Shown here: piece after piece, positions 1-19,120 of the stretch | Position numbering within the stretch: the first letter of the stretch is position 1 | How the letters are laid out: every line of letters starts with the position of its first letter | Assembly: GCA_023140385.1 (NCBI GenBank) | Contig: JAGLLT010000039.1 | Coordinates: 34,381 to 98,380 of the forward strand | Length of the DNA stretch: 64,000 nt | Source: Candidatus Omnitrophota bacterium | Lineage (GTDB): Bacteria > Omnitrophota > Gorgyraeia > JAGLLT01 | Direction: 5' to 3' | Notes under the pieces: model-generated | What the model was told of the DNA's origin: nothing | Seen by the model: the letters and a program-made list of their open reading frames with translations, nothing else | Database searches by the model: none | Program-made: the position numbers and the translations under genes

Positions 1-1146
1 TTAATATTAACTGAAGCTGTTAAAACTAGAGCCAGCGATGTGCATATTGAACCTTTAGAGAAACAATTTAGAGTGAGGTATAGAATAGACGGGCTATTGC
101 ATGAAGTGCCGGGGCCGCCGAAGCATTTGCAGGGTTCGGTGATAAGCAGGTTGAAGCTTATGGCGGGCATTGATATCGCTGAAAAGCGCCTGCCCCAGGA
201 CGGGCGTATCAAAGTTAAGCTTTTAAATAAAGATTTAGATTTACGGGTTTCTACGCTCCCCGGCATATATGGTGAAAGTGTGGTTATGAGAATCCTGGAT
301 AAATCAAGCCTCTTAATAGGCTTGGAAGAACTCGGATTTTTTTCAGAGGATAGGAAGAAATTTGAGGAGTTGATTGAGATGCCGAACGGGACGCTTCTTG
401 TTACCGGCCCGACTGGCTCCGGTAAAACCACTACTCTTTACGCCGCCTTAAACTATATAAATAAACCTAATAAAAAATTAATTACCATTGAGGATCCCGT
501 AGAATATCAGATAAAGGGAATAAATCAGGTTCAGATAAAACCTCAGGTTGGCCTTACCTTTTCTGCGGGATTGCGCGCTATGTTAAGGCAGGCGCCAGAC
601 GTTATATTGGTTGGTGAAATACGTGATAAGGAAACGGCCTCCATTGCCGTGCAGGCCGCCTTAACCGGCCATTTAATTTTTTCTACTCTCCATACTAATG
701 ATGCCGCGGGAGCTGTCACCAGATTGATAGATATGGGAGTTAAGTCATATCTGGTAGCTTCTACTTTGCAGGCGGTTTTAGCTCAGCGTTTGATCAGGAT
801 GATCTGTCTGAACTGCAAAGAACCTTATCAGCCAAAACCGGAAGAGCTAAAGGCTATGAATTTAAAAGAGGAGGATATCGTTGAGGCTACTTTCTTTATG
901 GGTAAAGGCTGTGACGCGTGCGGCAATACGGGATTTAAGGGGAGGAAGGGCATTTTTGAACTGATGCTGATAAATGATATTATTCGAGAGATGATATTTG
1001 AGAGAAAGTCCAGCGCGGAGATAAAGACCAAAGCCGTTGAAATGGGCATGAAGACGTTGAGAGAGGACGGTAAGGTAAAGGCTTTAAAAGGATTGACAAC
1101 TATCTCTGAAGTAGTCAGAGTTGCCCAGATAGATGAAGTATCATAA
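1..1146 (+). CDS. Type II secretion / type IV pilus assembly ATPase, GspE/PilB family (5' end lies outside the window)
   Basis: Frame 1 is open from nt 1. Translation shows ASDVHIEP, Walker A TGPTGSGKTTT and the GHLIFSTLHTNDAAG segment, followed by a C-terminal CxxC...CxxC tetracysteine. Confidence 0.85.
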   Translation, partial: LILTEAVKTRASDVHIEPLEKQFRVRYRIDGLLHEVPGPPKHLQGSVISRLKLMAGIDIAEKRLPQDGRIKVKLLNKDLDLRVSTLPGIYGESVVMRILDKSSLLIGLEELGFFSEDRKKFEELIEMPNGTLLVTGPTGSGKTTTLYAALNYINKPNKKLITIEDPVEYQIKGINQVQIKPQVGLTFSAGLRAMLRQAPDVILVGEIRDKETASIAVQAALTGHLIFSTLHTNDAAGAVTRLIDMGVKSYLVASTLQAVLAQRLIRMICLNCKEPYQPKPEELKAMNLKEEDIVEATFFMGKGCDACGNTGFKGRKGIFELMLINDIIREMIFERKSSAEIKTKAVEMGMKTLREDGKVKALKGLTTISEVVRVAQIDEVS

Positions 1147-1163
1147 ATCAATGAGGGGTATCT

Positions 1164-2234
1164 ATGATTAATATAAACAAACTACTAATGGAATGTATAG
1201 ATAAGGGCGGGTCTGATCTGCATCTGACTGTGGGCAAGCCTCCCATACTCAGGCTGGACGGCCGCCTTGTGTCTCTGGATTTTCCTGAATTGAAACCGGA
1301 TGATGTAGAAAGCATGATGACTCAGATTACTGATGAAGAAAAAAGGCGCAAAGTTAGTGAGGTAGGCGGCTGTGACTTTGGTTTTGGTTTTGGCAAGAAC
1401 AGGTTTAGGGCATCAGTCTACCGCGGGAGAGGGGTAATAGGGATATCACTCCGGCTTATTCCCTCCGAACTACTTACTTTTAGTGAATTAGGATTGTCGG
1501 ACAAAGTAAGGGATCTGCTTTTTAGAACGAGGGGCCTGATTTTAGTTACCGGCCCGACCGGTTCAGGCAAAAGCACGACGCTGGCAACAATGATAAATTA
1601 CATAAATACAAATATTGACTGTCACATAATAACCATTGAAGATCCCATTGAATATTACCATCAGCATAAAAAGAGCATTATAACTCAAAGAGAGGTGGGT
1701 ATGGATGTGCCGTCATTCTCAGAGGCGATAATCAGGGGGTTGAGAAGCGACCCCGATGTTATCCTGGTAGGAGAGATGCGCGATCTGCCGACAATACAGG
1801 CAGCCCTTCTCGCGGCGGAAACAGGCCATCTGGTTTTTGCTACTCTCCATACTGTTAATGCCGCCCAGACGGTTGACAGGGTGGTAAACTCTTTTGCTAT
1901 TCATCAACAGGAGCAGGTGAGAGCACAACTTTCAGCCTGTATTCTGGCGGTCTTATCGCAAAAACTTTTACTGAGGAAGTCCAAAAAAGGGCGCGTTGCC
2001 TGTTTTGAAGTTATGGTGTCTACTTCTTCCGTACAGAGTCTAATACGGGAAAAAAAGACCTTTAGGATACCTTCTGAACTTCAAACGGGCTCAAAGTACG
2101 GCATGAAGCCTTTTGACTTTTCTCTTATTGAACTTTATCAAAATGGTATAATATCCAAAGATACGGCTTATAAAAACGCTTTTGACAAGGAGCAGTTTGA
2201 CACTATGTTTAAAGAGAGAGTGAATAGAAAATAA
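1164..2234 (+). CDS. pilT: Twitching-motility (retraction) ATPase PilT
   Basis: 356 aa with Walker A LVTGPTGSGKSTTLA and the PilT-type motifs GHLVFATLHT and AIHQQEQVRAQLS. The size matches PilT. A GAGGGG RBS lies upstream. Confidence 0.8.
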   Translation: MININKLLMECIDKGGSDLHLTVGKPPILRLDGRLVSLDFPELKPDDVESMMTQITDEEKRRKVSEVGGCDFGFGFGKNRFRASVYRGRGVIGISLRLIPSELLTFSELGLSDKVRDLLFRTRGLILVTGPTGSGKSTTLATMINYINTNIDCHIITIEDPIEYYHQHKKSIITQREVGMDVPSFSEAIIRGLRSDPDVILVGEMRDLPTIQAALLAAETGHLVFATLHTVNAAQTVDRVVNSFAIHQQEQVRAQLSACILAVLSQKLLLRKSKKGRVACFEVMVSTSSVQSLIREKKTFRIPSELQTGSKYGMKPFDFSLIELYQNGIISKDTAYKNAFDKEQFDTMFKERVNRK

Positions 2235-3958
2235 TGGCCGGAAAGCAGTTTAGAAGAAAACCGCTGGGCGAGATACTGTTAGACCAGGGTATTATATCCC
2301 AAAAGCACCTGGATGAGGCTCTGGATGAGCAAAAGAAGTCAGGAAAACTTTTAGGAAGGGTCCTTGTTGATTTAGGTTTTGTCAAAGAAAAAAGAATCTT
2401 AGAGGCCCTGGGTCTCCAGATAGGCATGAGAGTTACCGATCTGGAAAAGATGAAAATACCTGAAGAGATTATACAAGAAATTCCCGCTTCTTTGGCCCAG
2501 GTTTATAACGTTATTCCCGTGAAGCGGGAAGGGAATGTGTTGACGGTAGCTATCTCCGATCCGTTAAATATTAATGTCCTTGATGATTTGAGATTTGTAT
2601 TGAACTGTGAAGTGCAGGGAGCCATTGCCAGTGAAGATGTGATTAATGAAGCCATAGAAAAGTACTATGGGGGAAGCAAAAGCGATGAATCCTTAAGCGG
2701 CTTGGTTCGGGAGATAGAGGAAAACACCCCCGCGGTAATAACGTCAGAGGTAACGGAAACTCTGGATATAGCGGGCCTGAAGGAGCTGGCCTCTCAGGCG
2801 CCGGTGGTTAAGCTGGTTAATCTGGTTTTGCTGCAGGCGGTGAAGGATCAGGCCAGCGATATTCACTTTGAGCCTTTTGAAGATGAATTTAAGGTGAGAT
2901 ACAGGGTTGACGGAGTTTTATATGAGATAACCCATCCGCCGAAAAATTTGAGCCTGGCTATTACATCCAGAATTAAAGTAATGGCTAGTTTAGATGTAGC
3001 CGAGTCGAGGATGCCTCAGGATGGGCGCATTATGATGAGGGTTATGGGCAGAAGCATTGACTTGCGGGTTTCTACTTTGCCGACAATTTTCGGTGAGAGC
3101 GTAGTTATGAGAGTTTTAGACAGGAGTGTGGTAAGCTTGTCTCTGGATGAGATAGGATTGATGCCGGATCAAAAAGAAAAAATTATCACCCTAATACATA
3201 AACCCAACGGCATCATTTTATCTACGGGGCCTACCGGCTCCGGCAAAACAACTACCCTCTATTCGTGCCTGAGAAGCGTAAATAAAATAGAATTTAAAAT
3301 TATTACTACCGAAGATCCGGTAGAATATGATATCGCCGGCATTATACAGGTAAGCATTAAGCCCAAGATTAACTTGACATTTGCCACCTGCCTGAGACAT
3401 ATATTAAGGCAGGATCCGGATGTTATTATGGTAGGTGAAATTAGGGATAAGGAGACGGCCCAAATCAGTATTCAGGCCTCTTTGACGGGGCATCTGGTTT
3501 TTAGCACACTTCACACGAATGATGCCCCGAGTTCGGTGGCAAGGCTGATAGATATGGGCATTGAACCTTTTTTAATAACCTCCACCGTAGAGGCAATTAT
3601 TGCTCAGAGGTTAATACGAGTTCTTTGTCCCAAATGCAAAGAGCTTTATGTTCCTTCTGAATATGAGCTTTCTCAAATTGGCCTGGATCCGGGGAGGGTT
3701 GGAAGTAAGAAATTTTACCGGGCAAAAGGTTGCCGCGAGTGCAATAATATCGGATACAAAGGCCGCAGCGGGATATATGAGATACTGCTAATGAATGATA
3801 AAATAAGAGCCTTGATTATGGAAAAGTCACATAGCGCTCTTCTACGCAGAGCCGCGATAGAAGCCGGTATGCGCACATTAAGGGAAGACGGCCTGCTGAA
3901 AGTTTACGAGGGGTTGAGCAGCATTGAGGAGGTAGTCCGTGAAACCCAGGGTTATTAA
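2234..3958 (+). CDS. pilB: Full-length assembly ATPase PilB/GspE with N-terminal GspE_N (T2SSE_N) domain
   Basis: 574 aa. An N-terminal ~140-aa GspE_N-like domain is followed by SDIHFEP, Walker A STGPTGSGKTTT and GHLVFSTLHTND, then a C-terminal Cys4 zinc site. Confidence 0.85.
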   Translation: MAGKQFRRKPLGEILLDQGIISQKHLDEALDEQKKSGKLLGRVLVDLGFVKEKRILEALGLQIGMRVTDLEKMKIPEEIIQEIPASLAQVYNVIPVKREGNVLTVAISDPLNINVLDDLRFVLNCEVQGAIASEDVINEAIEKYYGGSKSDESLSGLVREIEENTPAVITSEVTETLDIAGLKELASQAPVVKLVNLVLLQAVKDQASDIHFEPFEDEFKVRYRVDGVLYEITHPPKNLSLAITSRIKVMASLDVAESRMPQDGRIMMRVMGRSIDLRVSTLPTIFGESVVMRVLDRSVVSLSLDEIGLMPDQKEKIITLIHKPNGIILSTGPTGSGKTTTLYSCLRSVNKIEFKIITTEDPVEYDIAGIIQVSIKPKINLTFATCLRHILRQDPDVIMVGEIRDKETAQISIQASLTGHLVFSTLHTNDAPSSVARLIDMGIEPFLITSTVEAIIAQRLIRVLCPKCKELYVPSEYELSQIGLDPGRVGSKKFYRAKGCRECNNIGYKGRSGIYEILLMNDKIRALIMEKSHSALLRRAAIEAGMRTLREDGLLKVYEGLSSIEEVVRETQGY

Positions 3959-7627: not shown

Positions 7628-7729
7628 AAACAAACGGGCTTTATATCTTATTTTTAACTTTCTATCTATCTTGCATGTTTGTTTAAAAGGGATTTTTCCG
7701 GCAAGATAACAAAGGCGGAAAGGAGTATT

Positions 7730-8485
7730 ATGAGAAGGTTTGTTCTTGCAATTTTATTATTATTTGTAGCTTTAAGCGTTTGTTCATTATCAAACGCCCA
7801 ACAGATTGCCCCCCGCAAATGGTCTCAACTGCCCGATATGGAGTGGGGTTTTGATGTATATTCAACAATTATGCCGTACGGTTACAGTAGTAATGTCGCT
7901 GATGACTGGCTCTGCACCAACGGACTGCCTATTACCGATATCCACTGGTGGGGTTCATACGGTGATTGGTCTATGGACGCGCGTCCGGAAAATACTATAA
8001 CCGGTTTTCAGATAGATATATTTGGCTATTATGCGCCGTACCCATTTTATATTCCTCACGCGAGATATAATCTTACTATAGAAGAAGTGAATGAGACCTA
8101 CTGCGGCTTACAGGAATATACAGGACACAGCGCATTTGAGTACTCTATTATACTTGATGAACCCTTTAATCAGGAAGAAGGAAGTACCTACTGGCTGATG
8201 ATAGCGGCTTATTTAGAAGATGGGACTTCTTATGAGTGGGGCTGGAAAACAACTGATCCTGATTCAAGGTATGGTTGCGGCGCGGTTAAATACACAGGAG
8301 ATAGTTGGGAGTGGATTCCAATTGAATACAGCGATTACGTAGATCCAAGTCATCCCTATTATGATTACGGCCCGGTTAATATGGCCTTTGAGCTGACTAC
8401 TATCCCTGAACCGGCCGCGATAATTATGCTGGGAAGTTTGGCTACCGGATTGTTCGGCATAGCAGGCATAAAAAGAAAAAGGTAA
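7730..8485 (+). CDS. Secreted Trp/Tyr-rich protein with a C-terminal PEP-CTERM sorting signal
   Basis: AGGAG RBS. N-terminal signal peptide MRRFVLAILLLFVALSVCSLSNA. The C-terminus IPEPAAIIMLGSLATGLFGIAGIKRKR* has PEP, a hydrophobic TM segment and a basic tail. Confidence 0.7.
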   Translation: MRRFVLAILLLFVALSVCSLSNAQQIAPRKWSQLPDMEWGFDVYSTIMPYGYSSNVADDWLCTNGLPITDIHWWGSYGDWSMDARPENTITGFQIDIFGYYAPYPFYIPHARYNLTIEEVNETYCGLQEYTGHSAFEYSIILDEPFNQEEGSTYWLMIAAYLEDGTSYEWGWKTTDPDSRYGCGAVKYTGDSWEWIPIEYSDYVDPSHPYYDYGPVNMAFELTTIPEPAAIIMLGSLATGLFGIAGIKRKR

Positions 8486-10309: not shown

Positions 10310-11965
10310 ATGGCAACGATAAAAAATTTAATCGGATTAGATATAGGCGGCAGCTCTGTCAAGCTTGTTAAATTTAAAAAAGTAAGAAATAAAATTCAGC
10401 TGGAAAAAGCCAGGGCTATAGAGCTAAAAGACGCGAAGTCTCTTCCCGCGGCCATAGCCGCTTTATTGAAAAGCGAAAAGATTCACACCTCAAAAGTTGC
10501 CGTATCCATTTCCGGCCAGTCAGTTTTTACGCGCTATGTTAAACTGCCAAAAATTTCCCAGAAAAAAATTGAGCAGGTAGTAAAATATGAAGCTCAGCAG
10601 CAAATTCCTTTTCCCATAGACAAGGTTATCTGGGATTATCAACTATTCGAAAATTCAAAGTCTCCTCAGTTAGAGGTCTTTCTTTCCGCTGTAAAGAAAG
10701 ATATTATTGACAACATCTACCGCCAGGTTTCTCAGGTTAAAGGCCTGGATGTTGTTTCTATGCAGGCGGCTCCCGTCGCTCTTTACAACATACTTAAGTT
10801 TAGCGGTGAAGTTAAAAATGACGCTATCATTCTTGACTTTGGGGCGAAAATAACCAATGTTGTTATTGCCAAGGGCAAGCAGATATGGATTAGAAGTATT
10901 CCTATAGGCGGTGATGATTTAACAAAAGCCATAAGTAAGCAGATGAAGACGGGGCCTGAGCAGGCAGAGGCCATGAAGAGAAAAGAAGGCATTATCCTTG
11001 CCGGAGCTACGGGGGATGAAGAGTTGACCCCGAGGTCTGATCTTATTTCCAAGGCTATCAGCCCCGTACTTACAGACCTGTTAGCGGAAATTATGCGCTC
11101 TATCAGTTATTATAAGTCTCAGTTTGATAAAACGGCCGCTTTTCAGGAGATTCTTCTGACGGGGGGCGCTTCAAAGATTATGTGCGTCGAGAGATTTTTT
11201 GAGCAAAACTTAAAAATTAAAACCCGCAAAGTTAATCTCTTAAAAGGCTTTGTTGTCAACAAATACATGAAGGCAAACCTTGATGTCATAGAGGACAGGC
11301 TGGGAGTGGCCATGGGGCTGGGGCTGCCAGCCGTCCAAACACCTGTCATAGAGATTAACCTGATATCCAGAGAACAAAGAAAGCTGAAGGAGTTCGGCAA
11401 GAAAGAGTTTTACATAATTGCCTCTGAGATTGTGCTTTTGGGCATTTTTCTGATGTTATCTTTTTTCTGCTCTCAGTCGAAAGAGTTAAGCCAAAGAAAC
11501 CTGCTGGCCATAACCGGCGAGATGGATAAGTACCGCGGAAATCAACGCTCCGTTTACGCGCTTCACGATCAAAACAAAGATGTTGAGGCAAAGCTGGATT
11601 TTCTCGGCGGCCTTATTTACCGAAAGAGGTTCTGGCTTGATGTAATAGCCGAAATAAACGCTATTGTGCCTAAAGAAGCCTGGTTGACAAAGTTAACCAC
11701 TGATCTCAGCCGGGAAGCAATAATTATTGAAGGAAAAACAACGGGGCCGTTTGATACCGTTAAAAGCATAAAAGAAAATTTGTTAAAATTAAATTATTTT
11801 TCTGAGGTGGAAACACTCAGGGCGGACCGCCCCTCCCCTCAGGAAGAGGAAGAGTTAGAAGAGTATAATATTATATTTACATTGAAGTTAAAATTGAAGA
11901 AACCCTCCCCGGCTTATTATGATAGAGAGAAAGAAGATCTGATTGAAAGGCATATGGTGAAATGA
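10310..11965 (+). CDS. pilMN: PilM-PilN fusion protein (actin-like ATPase-fold PilM fused to bitopic PilN)
   Basis: An N-terminal IGLDIGGSSVKLV actin-fold segment of about 340 aa is followed by IEINLISREQRK, a TM helix and a PilN-like periplasmic domain. The reading frame is continuous. Confidence 0.75.
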   Translation: MATIKNLIGLDIGGSSVKLVKFKKVRNKIQLEKARAIELKDAKSLPAAIAALLKSEKIHTSKVAVSISGQSVFTRYVKLPKISQKKIEQVVKYEAQQQIPFPIDKVIWDYQLFENSKSPQLEVFLSAVKKDIIDNIYRQVSQVKGLDVVSMQAAPVALYNILKFSGEVKNDAIILDFGAKITNVVIAKGKQIWIRSIPIGGDDLTKAISKQMKTGPEQAEAMKRKEGIILAGATGDEELTPRSDLISKAISPVLTDLLAEIMRSISYYKSQFDKTAAFQEILLTGGASKIMCVERFFEQNLKIKTRKVNLLKGFVVNKYMKANLDVIEDRLGVAMGLGLPAVQTPVIEINLISREQRKLKEFGKKEFYIIASEIVLLGIFLMLSFFCSQSKELSQRNLLAITGEMDKYRGNQRSVYALHDQNKDVEAKLDFLGGLIYRKRFWLDVIAEINAIVPKEAWLTKLTTDLSREAIIIEGKTTGPFDTVKSIKENLLKLNYFSEVETLRADRPSPQEEEELEEYNIIFTLKLKLKKPSPAYYDREKEDLIERHMVK

Positions 11966-12744
11966 ATTTCTATATAAAACTGCTAAAAAAGAATTTGTTT
12001 GCCTTTATTTTTATGGGTGTACTTTTAATAGCTATTATTATTTCAGCCGGTGTTTTTACGGCGCTTCTGGCCGGCAAGGCTGGTGTTGAAAATAAGGTTA
12101 AAGGAGAGTTGGTTCTCCGAGAGAACCTTACGATGGCAAAGAAAGACGCTCCTACTCTTGAGTGGATTAGCTACCTGACGAAAAAGAATGAGGCGCTTGA
12201 TAAAATATATAACGGCCTTATGGAAAAAATTGACGGGCCGGCCGTAAAGATGCCCGTGGAAGTGATGGAGTCCTTAAAGTTTAAGGAAAAGATATTTGAA
12301 GTTCAAAAAGATCTTAGAAAAGAGGCCGCCGGCAAACAGTTGGAGTTTAAAGATAAGGCTGTATTCTTAGGTTTTAAAGAGTATGAAACCAAGATTCCGC
12401 GTGATAAAGAGGTTCCAAACCTGACTAAACAGCTGGAGATCATAGAAGAGTTGATATCATTGATGTTTGAAAGCGAAATTGAAACCATTGAAGATATCGA
12501 ACTTCTTAAGTTTAATGATGGAGCCATTAAGGAAAAGAAAGATGAATTTAGGTACCGGGTCTTTCCTGTAAGGCTGGAGATTACTTCAAGCGTTAAAAAT
12601 CTGGCCTGGTTTTTCTTCAGGCTGTCTGAGTCGGACTTTATTTTTATGCCGGAGGAGCTAAAGATAGACTCTATGCCGGACTTAAAAGATAGAGTTAAGG
12701 GTAATTTTGTTATTTCCACTATTATTTTTTTGACAGACAATTAA
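11962..12744 (+). CDS. PilO-like bitopic inner-membrane pilus alignment protein
   Basis: ATGA overlap with pilMN. The protein has an N-terminal TM helix and a coiled-coil periplasmic domain. It is called PilO-like from its size and position. Confidence 0.45.
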   Translation: MNFYIKLLKKNLFAFIFMGVLLIAIIISAGVFTALLAGKAGVENKVKGELVLRENLTMAKKDAPTLEWISYLTKKNEALDKIYNGLMEKIDGPAVKMPVEVMESLKFKEKIFEVQKDLRKEAAGKQLEFKDKAVFLGFKEYETKIPRDKEVPNLTKQLEIIEELISLMFESEIETIEDIELLKFNDGAIKEKKDEFRYRVFPVRLEITSSVKNLAWFFFRLSESDFIFMPEELKIDSMPDLKDRVKGNFVISTIIFLTDN

Positions 12745-12756
12745 CCGGTAGGGCGA

Positions 12757-13458
12757 ATGGAAAAAAATTTTATTGTGAATAATATAGAGAAAATTGTTTT
12801 TTTTCTGCTTTTTATCGCGGCGGCAGCGCTCTTCGGAGGCTATCAAAAAGGACTTTATCTAAAGGGTATTGATGTTCAAAAAAAGCTTGCGGGCTACAAA
12901 TTTATACCGCCGCCTACAAGCATAGAGGGCATAGACACGCATAAAGAAACTATTGTGGAGCTAAGCAAGACCGCTTCTTTCTCCGACTACGAAGCTTGTT
13001 TTGAGAGGCAGGCGTTTAGTAAGTTTTTCATTCCTCCTCCGGTGGTGCCGCTCTTTGAGTATGAAAGCTGTAGTCCCGTTTATATGGATATAGTCTATAA
13101 AGGCTATATACAGTCATTAGCCGGAGTAGTGGGACAGATTAAAGTTGATAAAAGAAGTTACTTTGTGAGGGAGAAGGAGCGGATTGCTGACTACACGGTT
13201 GTAAAGATCAGAAAAGACTACGCGGTAGTTGAGAATACCGCGGGTAAAGAAATCAGATTGCCCCTTAGAGAAAGAATTTTAGGGGATGATTATCAGGCAG
13301 TTTTGTTTGTAACCGGGACAGGGGAAACAGTTAACGTCAAAAGAGGGGATGTTATAGAAAACTTCAAAGTACTTGACATTACACCTACTTGTGTGGTATT
13401 ATACAATGAAGGTACCCACCAACGCCTGGTTATTAAGCTGGAAGCGGGAAAGCAGTAG
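12757..13458 (+). CDS. Hypothetical membrane-anchored protein (possible PilP analogue)
   Basis: N-terminal TM or signal-anchor segment. The assignment rests only on its position between the PilO-like and secretin-associated genes. Confidence 0.3.
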   Translation: MEKNFIVNNIEKIVFFLLFIAAAALFGGYQKGLYLKGIDVQKKLAGYKFIPPPTSIEGIDTHKETIVELSKTASFSDYEACFERQAFSKFFIPPPVVPLFEYESCSPVYMDIVYKGYIQSLAGVVGQIKVDKRSYFVREKERIADYTVVKIRKDYAVVENTAGKEIRLPLRERILGDDYQAVLFVTGTGETVNVKRGDVIENFKVLDITPTCVVLYNEGTHQRLVIKLEAGKQ

Positions 13459-13515: not shown

Positions 13516-14622
13516 ATGCTCAGGATTAGAGTCTTATTTGTTTTGACAATAGTGAGTTTGATTGCAGTTTTAACTGTACGTGGTACTGCTTACGGTGAAG
13601 TAAAGGGTAAAGCTGAAGATCTTGCCAAAAAATTAGCCGAACGTAAACAGCTGCGTCGGGAAGAAAGCGAAATCCTTGTTGAAGGCAGGACCCAAAGGGG
13701 CATATACTACTTCAATAAAGGCTATTATCATGAGGCCATTCAGCAGTTTCACCTTGTGCTTGAGATGTCACCGGATAATAAAAAGGCAAAAAGCTACCTC
13801 AACAAAGCTATAGATAAACTGCAAATCGCCGCAAAAAAGCACTACAATAAGGGAAAGGCTTATTATAACAAAGGCTATATGCAAAAATGTATCGATGAGA
13901 TGTCTTTAATCCCTGAGGGGTACCCCTATTACGCGGAGGCCCGAGAGTACATTATAAATGCCCGGGAGGTGTTAACCGGCGGCAAGGTTTACGGAATAGA
14001 GAGTCCCAAAGCCGGAACTCAGCACGTTAAGGATGAAATGAAGCGGATGACAAAAGATAAAGAGCTGGTGATGCTGAGAAAAAAGGCTCATGAGCAGAAG
14101 CTAATGATGGACGTAGAAAGGTCATATCTGCCTCCTGAGAGGCGGGAGGAGATAGAAGAAGACGATGAGATAACACCGGAGGAGATTGCTGAAAGGAAGA
14201 AAGAGGAGGCTGAGGAGAGGCTAAGGGTTAAGATGAACAAAAATATAGTACCGGCGTTAAGTTTGAGCGATGCCGATATCCGCGACGTTATAAGAGAGCT
14301 TGTCAAACTGACAGGAGTCAATATTATACTTAACGAAGGCGCGCTGAAGGAGGCGTCCGGTGGAGAAACGCTTAGCATATCTTTTACTACCGTTACTCCA
14401 ATGGCCCTTTTGGATCTGCTTGATATCGCCCTTAAAACAACGAACTTAGCTTATAAGGTAGAGCCGTCGTATATATGGATTTCAGACAAGACTTCTATTG
14501 CCGAGGAAAAGATGGTTACTCGTACATATAAACTGAAGTACGGTGTACGAAGTATTCGTGATGTCGGCTTGATTCAGTTTGACGGCGGCGATGAAGAGAT
14601 TGAAGAGGACGAAGATTTTTAA
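13516..14622 (+). CDS. Periplasmic TPR protein carrying a secretin N0 domain and a truncated N1 domain (split-secretin N-terminal module)
   Basis: AAGGAG RBS. N-terminal signal peptide and TPR-like repeats. An E-rich linker is followed by the N0/STN-like segment DADIRDVIRELVKLTGVNIIL...LLDIALKTTNLAYKVE. After N0 comes MVTRTYKLKYG, which looks like the start of an N1 domain. The protein ends with an acidic tail. Confidence 0.6.
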   Translation: MLRIRVLFVLTIVSLIAVLTVRGTAYGEVKGKAEDLAKKLAERKQLRREESEILVEGRTQRGIYYFNKGYYHEAIQQFHLVLEMSPDNKKAKSYLNKAIDKLQIAAKKHYNKGKAYYNKGYMQKCIDEMSLIPEGYPYYAEAREYIINAREVLTGGKVYGIESPKAGTQHVKDEMKRMTKDKELVMLRKKAHEQKLMMDVERSYLPPERREEIEEDDEITPEEIAERKKEEAEERLRVKMNKNIVPALSLSDADIRDVIRELVKLTGVNIILNEGALKEASGGETLSISFTTVTPMALLDLLDIALKTTNLAYKVEPSYIWISDKTSIAEEKMVTRTYKLKYGVRSIRDVGLIQFDGGDEEIEEDEDF

Positions 14623-14664
14623 ATTCAGCTATTATCAACCAAAACAACCTGTAGAGTGCAAGCT

Positions 14665-15858
14665 ATGATAAAAAGAATTACTATTTGCGTTTTTCTAAGC
14701 ATCCTGGCCATAAATTCACTGTCTTTTGCCGAAGATAGTATGACCATTAAAGAGTATCTGGAGGAAGCGCTCCCGCTTCAAAAAGACAGAAAGATAGTCT
14801 TGGACAGGACTACCGGTATTCTCACCATAACAGATACCCCGACTAACCACAAGTTAATCAGGAAGCTTATCAAAGAGTTTGATGTCGGCCCTTCACAGGT
14901 TATGATTGAAGCCAGGTTCGTGGAGGTGAAGGTGAGTAACCTGGAGGAGTTAGGGGCAGAGTTTTACTGGTATCAGGCGGGTGAGCCGGAGAATGATAAG
15001 ATACTTGAAGGTTTGTCAGTGGGAGACGCGGCGCAGATTACTGATGATTTTGGTTATAGTGATCCTACTTATTACGCGACTACTCTCGATGGTATACAGT
15101 GGGGAAGGGCAGATGACTACGGAGAATATCAGCATTTTCCTCAATCGGGCTATGGAATGGACTTTTTTATCGGCAAGACAGGCTATCACGGTAACTACTT
15201 GAGGGCTTATATCCACGCGCTGGAGCAAAAAGGCAAGGCCAATACGCTCTCAGCGCCCAAGATAGCCACCCTCTCCGGACAGATGGCCAGTATGGAGGTA
15301 AGCCGGGTGTTTCCTTATGTCAGCGAGGTAGAGTTGGAGAACTTGGGGACGGCCGATCACCCTATCTGGTGCCTTAAAAAGACGGTAGAGGAGAAAATGA
15401 TGGGTATCTCGCTTGAGGTGACGCCGTATGTCGCCAAAGGCAGTAAATATATCACCCTTGACCTTCACCCCGAGGTTAACGTTATGCTTGATCAGAAGTC
15501 CATCAGGCCGCCAGTTACCACAAGCTACCTTACTTATTATTGGCATGGGAGTGACGAAGGTTATGAGCGATATACATATACCAGTACCGTTCCCGGCGTG
15601 CCTGATTCCGTTGGCTGGCCTACGGTTGACACCCGCTCTACCCAGACAACTGTGGTTACCAAAAGCGGAAGGACTATTATCTTGGGCGGGATGATAAAGG
15701 AGGAGGAAAAGGTTTACCGTAAAAAGGTACCTTTTTTAGGCAGTATTCCGCTTTTAGGCAACTTGTTTAAGTACAAATATATTGATAAGGAAAAGACAAA
15801 TCTCCTTATCTTTATCACAGCTACTTTAATTACTCCCGAGGGTAAGGAAATAAAATAA
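14665..15858 (+). CDS. Short secretin (N3 domain + secretin core), paralog A
   Basis: Signal peptide. N3-like segment TGILTITDTPTNHKLIRKLI...QVMIEARFVEV. C-terminal secretin signature VPFLGSIPLLGNLFKYK...NLLIFITATLI. Confidence 0.75.
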   Translation: MIKRITICVFLSILAINSLSFAEDSMTIKEYLEEALPLQKDRKIVLDRTTGILTITDTPTNHKLIRKLIKEFDVGPSQVMIEARFVEVKVSNLEELGAEFYWYQAGEPENDKILEGLSVGDAAQITDDFGYSDPTYYATTLDGIQWGRADDYGEYQHFPQSGYGMDFFIGKTGYHGNYLRAYIHALEQKGKANTLSAPKIATLSGQMASMEVSRVFPYVSEVELENLGTADHPIWCLKKTVEEKMMGISLEVTPYVAKGSKYITLDLHPEVNVMLDQKSIRPPVTTSYLTYYWHGSDEGYERYTYTSTVPGVPDSVGWPTVDTRSTQTTVVTKSGRTIILGGMIKEEEKVYRKKVPFLGSIPLLGNLFKYKYIDKEKTNLLIFITATLITPEGKEIK

Positions 15859-15859
15859 T

Positions 15860-17023
15860 ATGAAAAAGATAAAGAGTTATCTAATATTAATTTTTTCATT
15901 AAATATACTATTATCCGGCAGCTACTGCGCGGGTGAGACCATAAAGGATTATTTGGAGGAGGTTTTGCCTTATCAGGAGGGCCGAAGGATAGTTATAAAT
16001 ACGGCCACCGGAGTTTTGACTATTACCGACACGCCCACTAATCATAAACTGATTAGAATGCTGATAAAAGAGTGGGATGTCGGGCCGCGTCAGATTTCCA
16101 TTGAGGCTAAATTTATTGAGCTTAGAGAGGGTGTCATTGATGAAATGGGCATTGAGTGGTACGGGACAAGAAGTGATACTCAGTACCAGGTGGGAGTAGA
16201 AAGAAGAAGAAAAAAACATAATTTTTACATTGGTGACGGTCCCCAAAGAGGTACGAATGATGAGGGAACTCCGGTAACGGTTCCGCCTGCTTATGACGAG
16301 AATATCTCCGGCGCCGAAGAGGCCTTTGATTACAGGTATGACGCCTGGGCGTCTCCTCCATGGAGCGGTACAGAGTGGGGCGCGCCCAATCAGCCGGCAG
16401 GTGTTGGTTTGTGGGTAGGCAAAAGTTCTATGTCGGGCAGCGGTTTATTCGGCTACCTGAAGGCTTTGGAGTCGACAAGTAAAGTAAATGTTTTATCCTC
16501 ACCGAGAGTTACCACCCTTTCCGGCCAGATGGCTAATATTGAGTTGGCTGTGACAGCGCCTTACGCTTCTAGTGTAGATTTAACCGATACAGGCAGGTCT
16601 GCGTTTGGCCAGTATGAGACTTATGAAATTGAGGAGAAAAAGACAGGTGTTTTTTTAGAGGTGACGCCTTCGGTTGCCGAAGGCGGCAACATTATTACTC
16701 TTGATCTGCACCCTGAGGTAAGCGAGGTAGTAAGGAAGGTTCCCCTTTCAAGCAGTGATCAGTTTCCTGAGTATCTGGGCTGGCCAATTGTTGATACCCG
16801 CTCTATGCAGACAAGTATTACCATAAGAAGCGGAGAGACGATTGTTATCGGCGGTTTGATGAGGGATGATGAGGTAGTCACGGAAAGAAAGGTTCCTTTT
16901 TTAGGAAATATCCCCATTTTAGGGAATTTATTTAAGTATAAGTTAAAGAGCAGGGAAAAGACAAATCTGGTTATCTTTTTAAAGGCGACTCTGGTATCCG
17001 CGGAGGGTGAGGAGTTAAAGTAA
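15860..17023 (+). CDS. Short secretin (N3 domain + secretin core), paralog B
   Basis: Signal peptide. N3-like segment TGVLTITDTPTNHKLIRMLI...QISIEAKFIEL. C-terminal secretin signature VPFLGNIPILGNLFKYK...NLVIFLKATLV. Confidence 0.75.
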   Translation: MKKIKSYLILIFSLNILLSGSYCAGETIKDYLEEVLPYQEGRRIVINTATGVLTITDTPTNHKLIRMLIKEWDVGPRQISIEAKFIELREGVIDEMGIEWYGTRSDTQYQVGVERRRKKHNFYIGDGPQRGTNDEGTPVTVPPAYDENISGAEEAFDYRYDAWASPPWSGTEWGAPNQPAGVGLWVGKSSMSGSGLFGYLKALESTSKVNVLSSPRVTTLSGQMANIELAVTAPYASSVDLTDTGRSAFGQYETYEIEEKKTGVFLEVTPSVAEGGNIITLDLHPEVSEVVRKVPLSSSDQFPEYLGWPIVDTRSMQTSITIRSGETIVIGGLMRDDEVVTERKVPFLGNIPILGNLFKYKLKSREKTNLVIFLKATLVSAEGEELK

Positions 17024-17033
17024 GGTTAAAATT

Positions 17034-17333
17034 ATGAAGAAATTCCAAAAATTTTCAATTGTTATTTTTATATGTATGTTAATATTGCCGCTTTACCCGC
17101 AAGCTGGTTTTGCTCAGAACAAAAAGATTAAACTTACTACCTGTGATTTACACAAGGAGTATACCATTAAAGGAATTGTAGTTTACCGCTCCGGCACGCC
17201 GGATTTAGAGCAGATAAATGAGGAGCTTATAAAACGGGCCGGGAAGCTGAAGGCGGACTGTATTATCGGAGTAAGATATCTTGAGGCCATGGGGTATTTA
17301 TTTGGTTACGGAACTGCCGTTAAGGTGAAATAA
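17034..17333 (+). CDS. Small secreted YbjQ/UPF0145-like protein
   Basis: Signal peptide. The C-terminal ADCIIGVRYLEAMGYLFGYGTAVKVK resembles the YbjQ family. Confidence 0.4.
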   Translation: MKKFQKFSIVIFICMLILPLYPQAGFAQNKKIKLTTCDLHKEYTIKGIVVYRSGTPDLEQINEELIKRAGKLKADCIIGVRYLEAMGYLFGYGTAVKVK

Positions 17334-17463: not shown

Positions 17464-18297
17464 ATGATGGCTCTAAAAAAATATCTTGTTGTTCACCTAA
17501 CTGTCTTATTAGCCTGTAGTACGGTTTACGCCTTTGATGACCTTTCTTCCGGCCTAAGCGGCCATTATGCTTCAATGAACTTCTCCGTCCGCGCGACGAC
17601 TGTCGGAAAGGCCAGGGTAATAGGCGAGAAATCAGAAAGGTACTATAAAAGACTCTTAAAAAAATTAAGATACGGCGGTATGCTGAAAAAGAAGTGCCGT
17701 ATCTATATTTATAGTAACCATGAAGCATACATACAGTCTCTGCGTTCTGCCGGCATAAAGATACCGGCGTGGTCGGGAGGATGCCATTTACCGAGAAGGC
17801 ACTATGAGTTCGGATATCCTGTGGTCTGCGGATTTATAGAAAAGAGGCTATTAACCGAGGTTTTACCGCATGAGTTAACGCACGCTATATTCGCGGAATT
17901 TGTGTATGGTAAGAGAATTATAGAAAAACGCCTTTCTCCTTTGCCGCTCTGGATTGATGAAGGTATGGCCGTTTATATGCAGGAGAGGTCTGATTATAAG
18001 CAGGTAGTAAAACAGGCCGTCAGCGAAGGTGGTTATATCAGGTTGAAAGATCTCTTTATATTAAAAAGGTATCCGAAAGATGAAGCAAAGCTAAAGTATT
18101 TTTACGCCCAATCACCCAGCCTGGTTGATTTTTTGCTGAATAAGTATCCGGGCGGTAAGTTTATGTCTTTGGCCAAAAAATCGGTCTTTTCCGCCAAATC
18201 CGATGAAGAGATTTTAACTTCGGTTTATTACGGCAAAATAACAAGCATCAGCCAGATGGAGAAGCTCTGGATAAAGTTCGTTAAAGAGAGATATTAA
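17464..18297 (+). CDS. Secreted putative zinc metallopeptidase, peptidase-MA-like (HExxH...E)
   Basis: Signal peptide. HELTH motif followed about 30 aa later by WIDEGMAVY, a gluzincin-like third zinc ligand. Confidence 0.5.
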   Translation: MMALKKYLVVHLTVLLACSTVYAFDDLSSGLSGHYASMNFSVRATTVGKARVIGEKSERYYKRLLKKLRYGGMLKKKCRIYIYSNHEAYIQSLRSAGIKIPAWSGGCHLPRRHYEFGYPVVCGFIEKRLLTEVLPHELTHAIFAEFVYGKRIIEKRLSPLPLWIDEGMAVYMQERSDYKQVVKQAVSEGGYIRLKDLFILKRYPKDEAKLKYFYAQSPSLVDFLLNKYPGGKFMSLAKKSVFSAKSDEEILTSVYYGKITSISQMEKLWIKFVKERY

Positions 18298-18319
18298 AAT
18301 TTTTGCAAACTGTAGAAAA

Positions 18320-19120
18320 TTGAAAAAAACCATTTTTTTTATATTATTAATCGGTGTTTTATTATCTCAGCCGGCCGCGGCAAATGGGAAGAAAGCGGGC
18401 AGTTTGGGATTGCCCCAGGTTTTAAAGAGGATGCACTTTGTTATTTACCACAACGACCGCTCCTATGCCAATAAGGTGAGCTGGAAGGCGGAGTACAGCT
18501 ATAAAAAGATTTTAAGACATTTTAATGTTCAGGGGTTTCGCCCCTGGGAAGGAAAAGAAAAATGCGTTATATATCTTTTTGAAAACAGAGCTGAGTATAT
18601 AAAAAAATCCAAGGCCCCTGAATGGTCAGGCGGATGCGCCAGAGATAATCCTCCGCGCCTCTATATTTATAAAGGGGCAGAAGATTTGCTAAAAAATACA
18701 CTTCCGCATGAAATAACCCACCTGATTTTTCATGAGTTAATTCCCAGGAGCAAGATTCCCTTATGGCTTGATGAAGGAATGGCTCAATATGAGGAAGATA
18801 AATGGGGTTCGGGTGTTTTTAAGGATTATCTTAAAGATAGAGTGAAGAAGGGTATCTATATCAGTTTTGATGAACTTTTCAGTATGAAGCGTTATCCTTC
18901 CGGCGATGAGAAGATAAGCCTGTTTTACGCGGAGTCGGCGAGCATTATTGATTACCTGAGGAAGAAGCAGATTGCCAGCCTTTTCGGTAAATTTTTGTTG
19001 AAAATCAGGCGCGGGAAGCCGGTTGGTAAAGCCCTTTCGGAAACCTATTATCCCAAGTTTAAATATGGAGTTGCTGATTTAGAGAGAAAATGGAAAAAGT
19101 ACGTAGTAAACAAATATTAG
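18320..19120 (+). CDS. Secreted putative zinc metallopeptidase, paralog of the 17464 gene
   Basis: Signal peptide. HEITH followed by WLDEGMAQYEE. It aligns with the upstream paralog along its whole length. Confidence 0.5.
   Translation: MKKTIFFILLIGVLLSQPAAANGKKAGSLGLPQVLKRMHFVIYHNDRSYANKVSWKAEYSYKKILRHFNVQGFRPWEGKEKCVIYLFENRAEYIKKSKAPEWSGGCARDNPPRLYIYKGAEDLLKNTLPHEITHLIFHELIPRSKIPLWLDEGMAQYEEDKWGSGVFKDYLKDRVKKGIYISFDELFSMKRYPSGDEKISLFYAESASIIDYLRKKQIASLFGKFLLKIRRGKPVGKALSETYYPKFKYGVADLERKWKKYVVNKY

Follow-up and report, generated by a model that had tools for sequence, protein, structure and literature searches.

A type IV pilus secretin of Omnitrophota distributed over three genes, with the break inside its N domain and a duplicated pore-forming half

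Secretins serve as the common gates in the outer membrane for type II and type III secretion, type IV pili, competence systems and filamentous phage export. To our knowledge, all secretins studied so far form rings of one protein, in which the N domains are covalently attached to the pore. Here we analyse a single 64-kb stretch of a Candidatus Omnitrophota metagenome-assembled genome (MAG), referred to as the window, in which a secretin is distributed over three genes at positions 13516-17023. The first gene encodes a protein of 368 residues with tetratricopeptide repeats (TPR) and an N0 domain, which is called the TPR-N0 protein (13516..14622, + strand; ATG start behind an AGGAG site). The other two encode short secretins: core A (14656..15858, + strand; 400 residues from a GTG codon, or 397 from the likely ATG at 14665, which is the NCBI call, P0155) and its paralogue core B (15860..17023, + strand; 387 residues). 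The genes lie where they were originally predicted from the sequence of the window, are co-directional and close a type IV pilus operon. Their products are 100% identical to KAJ66_05825/05830/05835. Each of the three proteins starts with a signal sequence with typical n-, h- and c-regions, as judged by eye, and a lipobox was found in none of them.

Amuc_1098 of Akkermansia muciniphila is a TPR-bearing type IV pilus secretin PilQ and an abundant outer-membrane protein (PMC4960237). The window resembles the Amuc_1098 family (NF042912) in the order of the TPR, N0, single Secretin_N and Secretin domains and in the Amuc_1100/1101-like neighbours, encoded directly upstream (Amuc_1101_fam, 2.5e-91; Amuc_1100_fam, 1.6e-11). 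However, members of the family are single polypeptides of ~800-900 residues, whereas the window has three genes, a break within the N domain, and a duplicated pore half. The window proteins match the Amuc_1098_fam profile piecewise, with 29.3 bits for the TPR-N0 protein, 125.9 for core A and 129.0 for core B, far below the equivalog cutoff of 750, while fused relatives described below match it end to end. The cores also remain below the cutoffs of the PilQ model TIGR02515 (147 bits for both cores; cutoff 284) and of the GspD model TIGR02517 (166.5 bits for core A and 172.2 for core B; cutoff 351). They match only the N3-plus-secretin part of the PilQ and GspD models.

A secretin encoded by two genes, rhcC1 and rhcC2, is known from rhizobial type III secretion systems, where the periplasmic N-terminal region is separated from the pore-forming region as it is in the window (PMC4500985). 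However, RhcC2 has been described as an acquired Tad-like secretin that replaced a lost C-terminal part, and not as the product of a simple fission (PMC4500985). Unlike the window, the rhizobial system has no TPR and no core duplication, and its genes are not adjacent paralogues. The context of the window is that of a type IV pilus or type II secretion system, and the cores score better on GspD, PilQ and MshL than on RcpA. In type IVb pili, BfpG/TcpQ is a separately encoded secreted protein with an N0 fold that forms intermolecular beta-strand pairs with the secretin in a 1:1 (17:17) ratio (PMC12531336). BfpB retains its own complete N0 and N3 domains, and strands from its lipidated LG domain add to BfpG (PMC12531336). 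In contrast, the cores of the window have no N0, and the window protein, which consists of TPR, N0 and a first strand beta1, would supply the strand that the N domain of the secretin itself lacks.

The pilotins PilF, PilW, Tgl and TadD of type IVa and Tad pili also have a TPR module tied to secretin assembly, and the TPR-N0 protein matches such proteins weakly. The pilotins are outer-membrane lipoproteins that have a lipobox cysteine and TPRs but not N0, whereas the window protein is devoid of a lipobox and carries N0 and beta1. In chaperone-usher pili, a fold that lacks one beta-strand acquires it from another polypeptide. This donor-strand complementation is a mechanistic analogy only, as the fold and the system are unrelated and complementation in the window is putative. 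Because two-gene rhizobial type III secretins (PMC4500985) and trans-acting N0-like partners in type IVb pili (PMC12531336) are known, the original prediction went too far in stating that the arrangement had not been described as an architecture. In the literature, we found no description of a split through the N domain, of tandem conserved pore paralogues, or of an Omnitrophota secretin.

The TPR-N0 protein is organized into a signal peptide, a TPR module (residues ~40-155), a helical and acidic linker, an N0 (STN-like) domain (14251..14508, + strand; residues ~246-331) and a conserved C-terminal tail (14512..14619, + strand). The tail contains the strand beta1 (MVTRTYKLKYG, nucleotides 14512-14544), a VRxxRxVxLxxF element and an acidic end. 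There is no cysteine in the signal peptide region (MLRIRVLFVLTIVSLIAVLTVRGTAYGE). The Pfam matches of the protein are sub-threshold (TPR_2, E 1.9e-5; STN, E 0.024; GspD N0, E 0.048). Amuc_1098_fam matches it with an E-value of 2.2e-7 over profile positions 235-370, and a profile of the N0 region matches the N0 domain of XcpQ/GspD crystal structures with an E-value of 7e-4. In AlphaFold predictions, the TPR array (residues 40-155) has predicted local distance difference test (pLDDT) values above 90. Residues 249-331 form a beta-alpha-beta-alpha-beta-alpha-beta-beta-alpha domain with a pLDDT of ~80 alone and ~92 in a deeper alignment. The best Foldseek match of the N0 model in the PDB is the N0 domain of PilQ (4ar0), followed by the STN domain of FpvA and the N0 domain of GspD in the GspC-GspD complex (3oss). 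The TPR part matches PilF (2ho1) and BamD among generic TPR proteins, and the type_IV_pilW profile matches the protein with an E-value of 0.027 only. The profile of the N0 region, AlphaFold, Foldseek and Amuc_1098_fam agree on the N0 domain that had been predicted on the first protein. The domain scans proposed with that prediction were positive for Secretin and Secretin_N, both of which exceed their Pfam thresholds in the cores, and remained sub-threshold for STN on the first protein.

Homologues of the TPR-N0 protein are uniformly 351-382 residues long down to 31% identity, with a few variants of 454-463 residues. Few stretches of the family are as conserved as the tail, in which residues Y338, L340, G343 and R348 are invariant. 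Tandem copies of an N0/STN-like domain, 4-8 per protein, are present in proteins P0184, P0188, P0190, P0189 and P0191 (1,400-1,700 residues), which were matched in the HMMER scan described below.

Each of the cores A and B is composed of a signal peptide, a truncated N domain with alpha-beta-beta-alpha topology, and a secretin domain; an S-domain was not detected in either core. The Pfam family Secretin matches core A with 133.1 bits (9.8e-39) and core B with 150.6 bits (3.9e-44; cutoff 27.5), and Secretin_N matches them with 30.5 bits (4.1e-7) and 31.3 bits (2.5e-7; cutoff 28.2), respectively. Sequence matches of the cores in the PDB are GspD/PilQ with an E-value of 5.5e-26 and RcpA (8odn) with 2e-11. 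Both cores have the C-terminal secretin domain that is characteristic of the superfamily (PF00263/PF03958). A complete N domain and N0 on the same polypeptide are absent: the cores start at alpha1, and N0 and beta1 are part of the preceding protein.

Cores A and B are 41% identical according to BLASTP and 43% in a MAFFT alignment. In 86 alignment columns the residues are conserved and identical in both, so both paralogues look functional. The systematic differences between them are in two regions. One, a variable insert, separates the first barrel strand from the start of Pfam Secretin, and the other is the loop after HPEVS, which is ~18 residues longer in core A. By analogy with solved secretins, the variable inserts probably point towards the lip and the membrane; AlphaFold modelled that of core A with low confidence. 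The motif VPFLG(S/N)IP(L/I)LGNLFKYK shared by the cores, their differing aromatic-rich inserts and the duplication of the pore-forming core were all noted in the original prediction and are recovered here, the duplication with Secretin and Secretin_N in both copies and with conservation in related loci. A lipoprotein or pilotin status was considered for core B and for the ~100-residue protein encoded behind it and was rejected, since neither has a conserved lipobox.

The position of the break can be read from relatives in which the same domains form one chain. A profile of N0 and the tail, scanned with HMMER against 1.84 billion (1.84e9) representative proteins, produced 578 matches and revealed single chains of 720-924 residues with the order TPR, STN/N0, Secretin_N, Secretin. 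A word-indexed search with the same profile recovered 14 proteins, most of them fragments, and none of the fused forms. Amuc_1098_fam is the best NCBIfam family for four of the five fused relatives tested, with scores of 165-361 bits, and for fused protein P0226 the 361-bit match extends without interruption over profile positions 161-803. In an Auribacterota MAG, a fused gene occupies the orthologous place, after Amuc_1102/PilM/Amuc_1100-like genes and before CoaE-Rho. CoaE and Rho are also encoded downstream of the cluster in the window.

In the alignment of fused chains (A4), the sequence ...ISTPE...METRYYKLxxGxxxFTxF is followed by a variable acidic or glycine-rich loop of ~10-70 residues and then by TIKDILEQSGVPWP. 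The consensus after the loop is TIKDILEQSGVPWPxGSKIFLDxRTGTLIVxNTPxNL...QVxIEAKF. The TPR-N0 protein of the window ends within this loop (...MVTRTYKLKYGVRSIRDVGLIQFDGGDEEIEEDEDF, directly before the stop codon), and mature core A (EDSMTIKEYLEEALP...) and core B (GETIKDYLEEVLP...) begin just past it. The N-terminus of mature core A is 4 residues ahead of alpha1, and alpha1 starts ~3-25 residues from the signal-peptide cleavage site in every core A and B of every genome. The alignment places the fission point in the acidic/glycine-rich variable loop between beta1 and alpha1 of the sole secretin-proximal N domain, so that the TPR-N0 protein ends with beta1 and each core, after its signal peptide, starts at alpha1. 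When the domain is rejoined, its profile matches the secretin-proximal N domain of PilQ structures with an E-value of 2e-7. The beta1-alpha1 junction aligns with TRVFYLKYGKAKDMVE of ExeD N3 (beta1 TRVFYLKYG), a sub-match that is not significant on its own. The start of the Secretin_N match at profile position 13 in the cores was discarded as evidence of truncation, because the matches of fused relatives start likewise.

The original prediction had assigned the beginning of a separate N1 domain to the first gene and an N3-like domain to the cores. Alignment with the fused relatives across the junction indicates that these are pieces of one beta1-alpha1-beta2-beta3-alpha2 domain cut in two. The accompanying claim that the N-terminal periplasmic module is a separate secreted protein stands, with the module comprising TPR, N0 and the first strand of the next domain. 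We infer an ancestral one-gene secretin with a signal peptide, a PilW/PilF-like TPR module, N0, one N domain and a secretin domain, which then underwent gene fission.

The conservation of the split was evaluated in 31 loci from GTDB species representatives and four from exact-protein look-ups, of which 33 (32 distinct) extend far enough. All 31 GTDB loci are from Omnitrophota, and the label 'uncultured Planctomycetia' carried by some loci is taken to be a default bin name. The genes for PilMN, the Amuc_1100-like protein, the PilP-like protein, TPR-N0, two cores and a ~100-residue protein follow each other in 33/33 loci, across which the identity of TPR-N0 to that of the window falls to 32%. 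The junction of core A and core B is a 4-nucleotide overlap in 22/33 loci, and so is that of core B and the small protein in 20/33. Without exception, the cores of all genomes carry a signal peptide of their own.

In the window, the TPR-N0 and core A genes are in the same frame, one TAA codon and 33 nucleotides apart (14620-14664), as would be expected if a frameshift or stop had broken a normal PilQ/GspD gene through a sequencing or assembly artefact or pseudogene formation. The same-frame relation is found in only 8/33 loci, no more than chance, and the single in-frame TAA is therefore coincidental. Independent assemblies show the same arrangement at 32 distinct loci, with frames that vary and with 4-nucleotide overlaps, each core has its own signal peptide, and the lengths of the homologues are uniform. 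These observations leave an artefact or pseudogene with a negligible probability, and frameshift, misassembly and readthrough are excluded. Readthrough of the stop codon from TPR-N0 into core A was considered separately and rejected on the grounds that the frame is shared in only 8/33 loci and that a signal peptide intervenes. The split is genuine, and the three-gene arrangement, whose conservation in related MAGs had been suggested as a check, is retained far beyond chance.

The joint between the TPR-N0 protein and the core was modelled as a chimera, in which residues 238-368 of TPR-N0 were joined directly to mature core A, using alignment A4 with unpaired and fused homologues. When modelled alone, the tail is disordered, with a pLDDT of 33-41. 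In the chimera, VTRTYK becomes a six-residue strand (residues 97-102) with a pLDDT of 71-86. The loop remains disordered, and the alpha-beta-beta-alpha module and the barrel have a pLDDT of ~90. Foldseek matches the chimera to PilQ of V. cholerae (6w6m; E 5e-19), to other secretins, and to N0-N1 crystal fragments over ~185 columns. Because the conserved tail is disordered alone and forms a strand in the chimera with core A, the models indicate that the TPR-N0 protein and the core are likely to be joined by strand complementation in trans.

It is conceivable that the TPR-N0 protein is instead an independent accessory, either similar to a pilotin or to BfpG/TcpQ, or a scaffold of the peptidoglycan or outer membrane, and that an N module of two strands is sufficient for the cores. 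Trans-acting N0-like partners do exist in type IVb pili (PMC12531336), the TPR pilotins PilF/PilW are separate proteins in classical type IVa pili, and in fold and profile comparisons the TPR-N0 protein weakly resembles PilF, BamD and PilW. However, the tail and the N domain of the core form one contiguous domain in the fused relatives, the tail is conserved yet disordered alone, and the TPR-N0 protein has no lipobox, unlike pilotins. We consider an accessory of this kind improbable and strand complementation in trans the preferred explanation.

The history of the cores was analysed using neighbour-joining trees rooted by the fused relatives; since the method is simple, the counts of events are provisional. 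Mean identity is 54% among the cores in position 1, 52% among those in position 2, and 43% between the two sets. Nearest neighbours share the core position, the exception being the divergent L030_2, which has a position-1 core as its top neighbour. With L030 removed, the bootstrap values are 100/100 for the separation of A and B from the fused proteins, 95/100 for B and 54/100 for A; when the very divergent L030 is included, the value for B is 43/100. The A and B subtrees are congruent and have the same internal groupings. Judged from these trees, cores A and B are two ancient orthogroups, and the shared positions of neighbours together with the congruent subtrees point to one old duplication followed by co-divergence.

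Three variant loci differ from the main clade. Omnitrophota locus L039 encodes a TPR-N0 protein of 516 residues and a single core, and continues with PolA-exo, CoaE, Rho and RF1, as the window does. The nearest relative of the L039 core is fused protein P0304 (neighbour-joining distance 0.61 versus >1.2 to others), with which L039 shares the tail motif FDLQFGxPIRR, and the TPR-N0 protein of the locus is matched by the type_IV_pilW profile with an E-value of 1.9e-12. Locus L038 (6001-11216), from an Omnitrophota-like MAG, encodes a TPR-N0 protein of 690 residues whose Lys/Glu-rich coiled region is very long, a short core that groups with fused protein P0252 in the tree, and then a complete fused TPR-N0-N-secretin paralogue of 685 residues that has no loop between beta1 and alpha1. 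Locus L037 (6001-9683), from a divergent lineage, encodes a protein with AMIN, TPR and two tandem N0 domains that ends in beta1, followed by two short cores and then by BamD and LptE genes. The short cores of L037 are each other's closest relatives, and the pair may represent an independent duplication. The distribution of these forms suggests that fission at the beta1-alpha1 loop happened more than once. In the simplest reading, duplication was a later addition in the main clade.

We propose, with a probability of about 0.65, that the three proteins form the outer-membrane end of a type IV pilus machine of the Planctomycetota-Verrucomicrobiota-Chlamydiota type, similar to Amuc_1098-1102 of Akkermansia, that its secretin underwent fission and tandem duplication of the pore half, and that the parts rejoin in trans in a mixed ring. 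All three proteins would be exported by Sec, and the cores would insert and oligomerise in the outer membrane. The disordered tail of the TPR-N0 protein would dock on the incomplete alpha-beta-beta-alpha module and donate beta1, which would restore the beta-alpha-beta-beta-alpha fold in trans. Docking would fix the N0 ring beneath the pore. In GspC-GspD and PilP-PilQ, N0 contacts the homology region (HR) domain, and the N0 ring of the window may similarly engage the PilP/GspC-HR-like protein of the PilMN/PilO platform. The TPR module would serve as a built-in pilotin or scaffold element resembling PilW/PilF, as in fused PilQ. In the least certain step, A and B, produced in near-equal amounts from coupled genes, would co-assemble into a mixed ring with a TPR-N0 tail on each subunit.

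Several points weigh against this mechanism. Duplication is not needed for function, given that L039 has TPR-N0 and one core, and we know of no heteromeric secretin. Many solved secretins have odd symmetry (13, 15 or 17), which excludes a strict alternation of A and B. There is also a problem of stoichiometry, in that one gene for the beta1 donor stands beside two genes for acceptors. The assignment of the PilP-like protein depends on weak profile matches. The predicted pairing of beta1 with the sheet of the core, and not with N0, is deduced only from DSSP summaries and changes in pLDDT. Furthermore, the chimera is partly a homology model, because fused homologues were included in its alignment, and is not an independent test of binding in trans. 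For these last two reasons, strand donation is a well-motivated inference and not a demonstration.

A heteromeric or alternative channel had been raised as a possibility in the original prediction. The mixed ring is favoured by the strict co-occurrence, coupling and co-divergence of A and B. It would be the first known hetero-oligomeric secretin pore, with an N ring completed by strands donated by TPR-N0 and with fission recurring independently at the same loop; we advance this tentatively, at less than even odds. The function of a single core in L039 and the lack of a known heteromeric secretin make homomeric rings a serious alternative. A and B might then form two separate channels, one for pilus extrusion and the other for secretion or DNA uptake, or channels for different conditions, with TPR-N0 serving one or both. 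Characterised secretins are all homo-oligomers, as far as we know and as the PDB matches indicate. The systematic differences of A and B in two variable regions agree with separate channels, and the two PilB-like ATPases and PilT of the operon hint at two activities. However, neither A nor B was found alone in the 33 loci of the clade, and the two are usually translationally coupled, have congruent trees and are conserved to a similar degree. The cores are accompanied by the genes of a single alignment platform and a single N0 donor. We consider two homomeric channels the less likely reading.

The split secretins of the Omnitrophota may provide a natural experiment on the scale of a phylum, as the cut through a domain reveals the place at which the N ring can unplug from the pore. 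They may also be a ready-made system for studying how the pore couples to the inner-membrane platform. With two conserved pore paralogues, a first test of a heteromeric secretin ring would become possible, with bearing on symmetry, gating and the symmetry mismatch with the platform. Recurrent fission at one loop would be a clean case of domain-splitting gene fission. Automatic annotation labels the genes as 'hypothetical', 'TPR repeat protein' or 'GspD', and as a result the complete outer-membrane complex of the Omnitrophota pilus is missed. Many Omnitrophota are ultra-small and possibly host-dependent.

The alignment components of the pilus machine are encoded directly upstream of the split secretin. 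The PilM-PilN fusion (10310..11965, + strand; 551 residues) is an inner-membrane/cytoplasmic alignment component, matched by Pfam PilM_2 (1.4e-35) and PilN (2.9e-4) in addition to Amuc_1101_fam, and precedes the split secretin in all related loci. The PilO-like protein of the Amuc_1100 family (11962..12744, + strand; 260 residues) has a weak match to Pfam PilO, and its homologues have PF28028 Amuc_1100. The PilP/GspC-HR-like protein (12757..13458, + strand; 233 residues) has weak matches at residues 176-227 (GspC_delta, E 0.0013; pilP_fam, E 0.078; T2SSB, E 0.068) and a conserved operon position across related loci. It is presumed to be the partner of the N0 domain on the side of the inner membrane. 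Further upstream, on the same + strand, the operon encodes a partial PilB, PilT, a second PilB, PilC, several pseudopilins and a PEP-CTERM protein.

A small secreted YbjQ/BhsA-like protein of 99 residues (17034..17333, + strand) is encoded after core B in 33/33 loci of the A/B clade. It has sub-threshold matches to YbjQ_1, SeleniumBinding and YdgH_BhsA in 9/9 members tested, one of them at threshold. The protein is absent from the single-core locus L039 and from the L037 and L038 variants; its role may be that of an accessory dedicated to the duplicated secretin.

At 40-3958, two PilB/GspE-type ATPases are encoded around PilT; one is cut by the start of the window, and the other has 574 residues and an MshEN-like N-terminus. 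This pair of extension motors within a single operon may be connected with the existence of two pore paralogues. The PEP-CTERM-tailed secreted protein, which ends in ...IPEPAAIIMLGSLATGLFGIAGIKRKR, is encoded at 7679-8485 amid the pseudopilin genes. Between the secretin genes and polA, at 17464-19120, are tandem paralogous Peptidase_MA_2 proteins of 277 and 266 residues, both with signal peptides, whose genes are at the same place in loci L001, L003 and L004. The + strand holds all open reading frames of at least 200 residues at 24-64 kb and all the preceding operon genes, an unusually long co-directional stretch. GC skew is positive in every 2-kb bin of the window.

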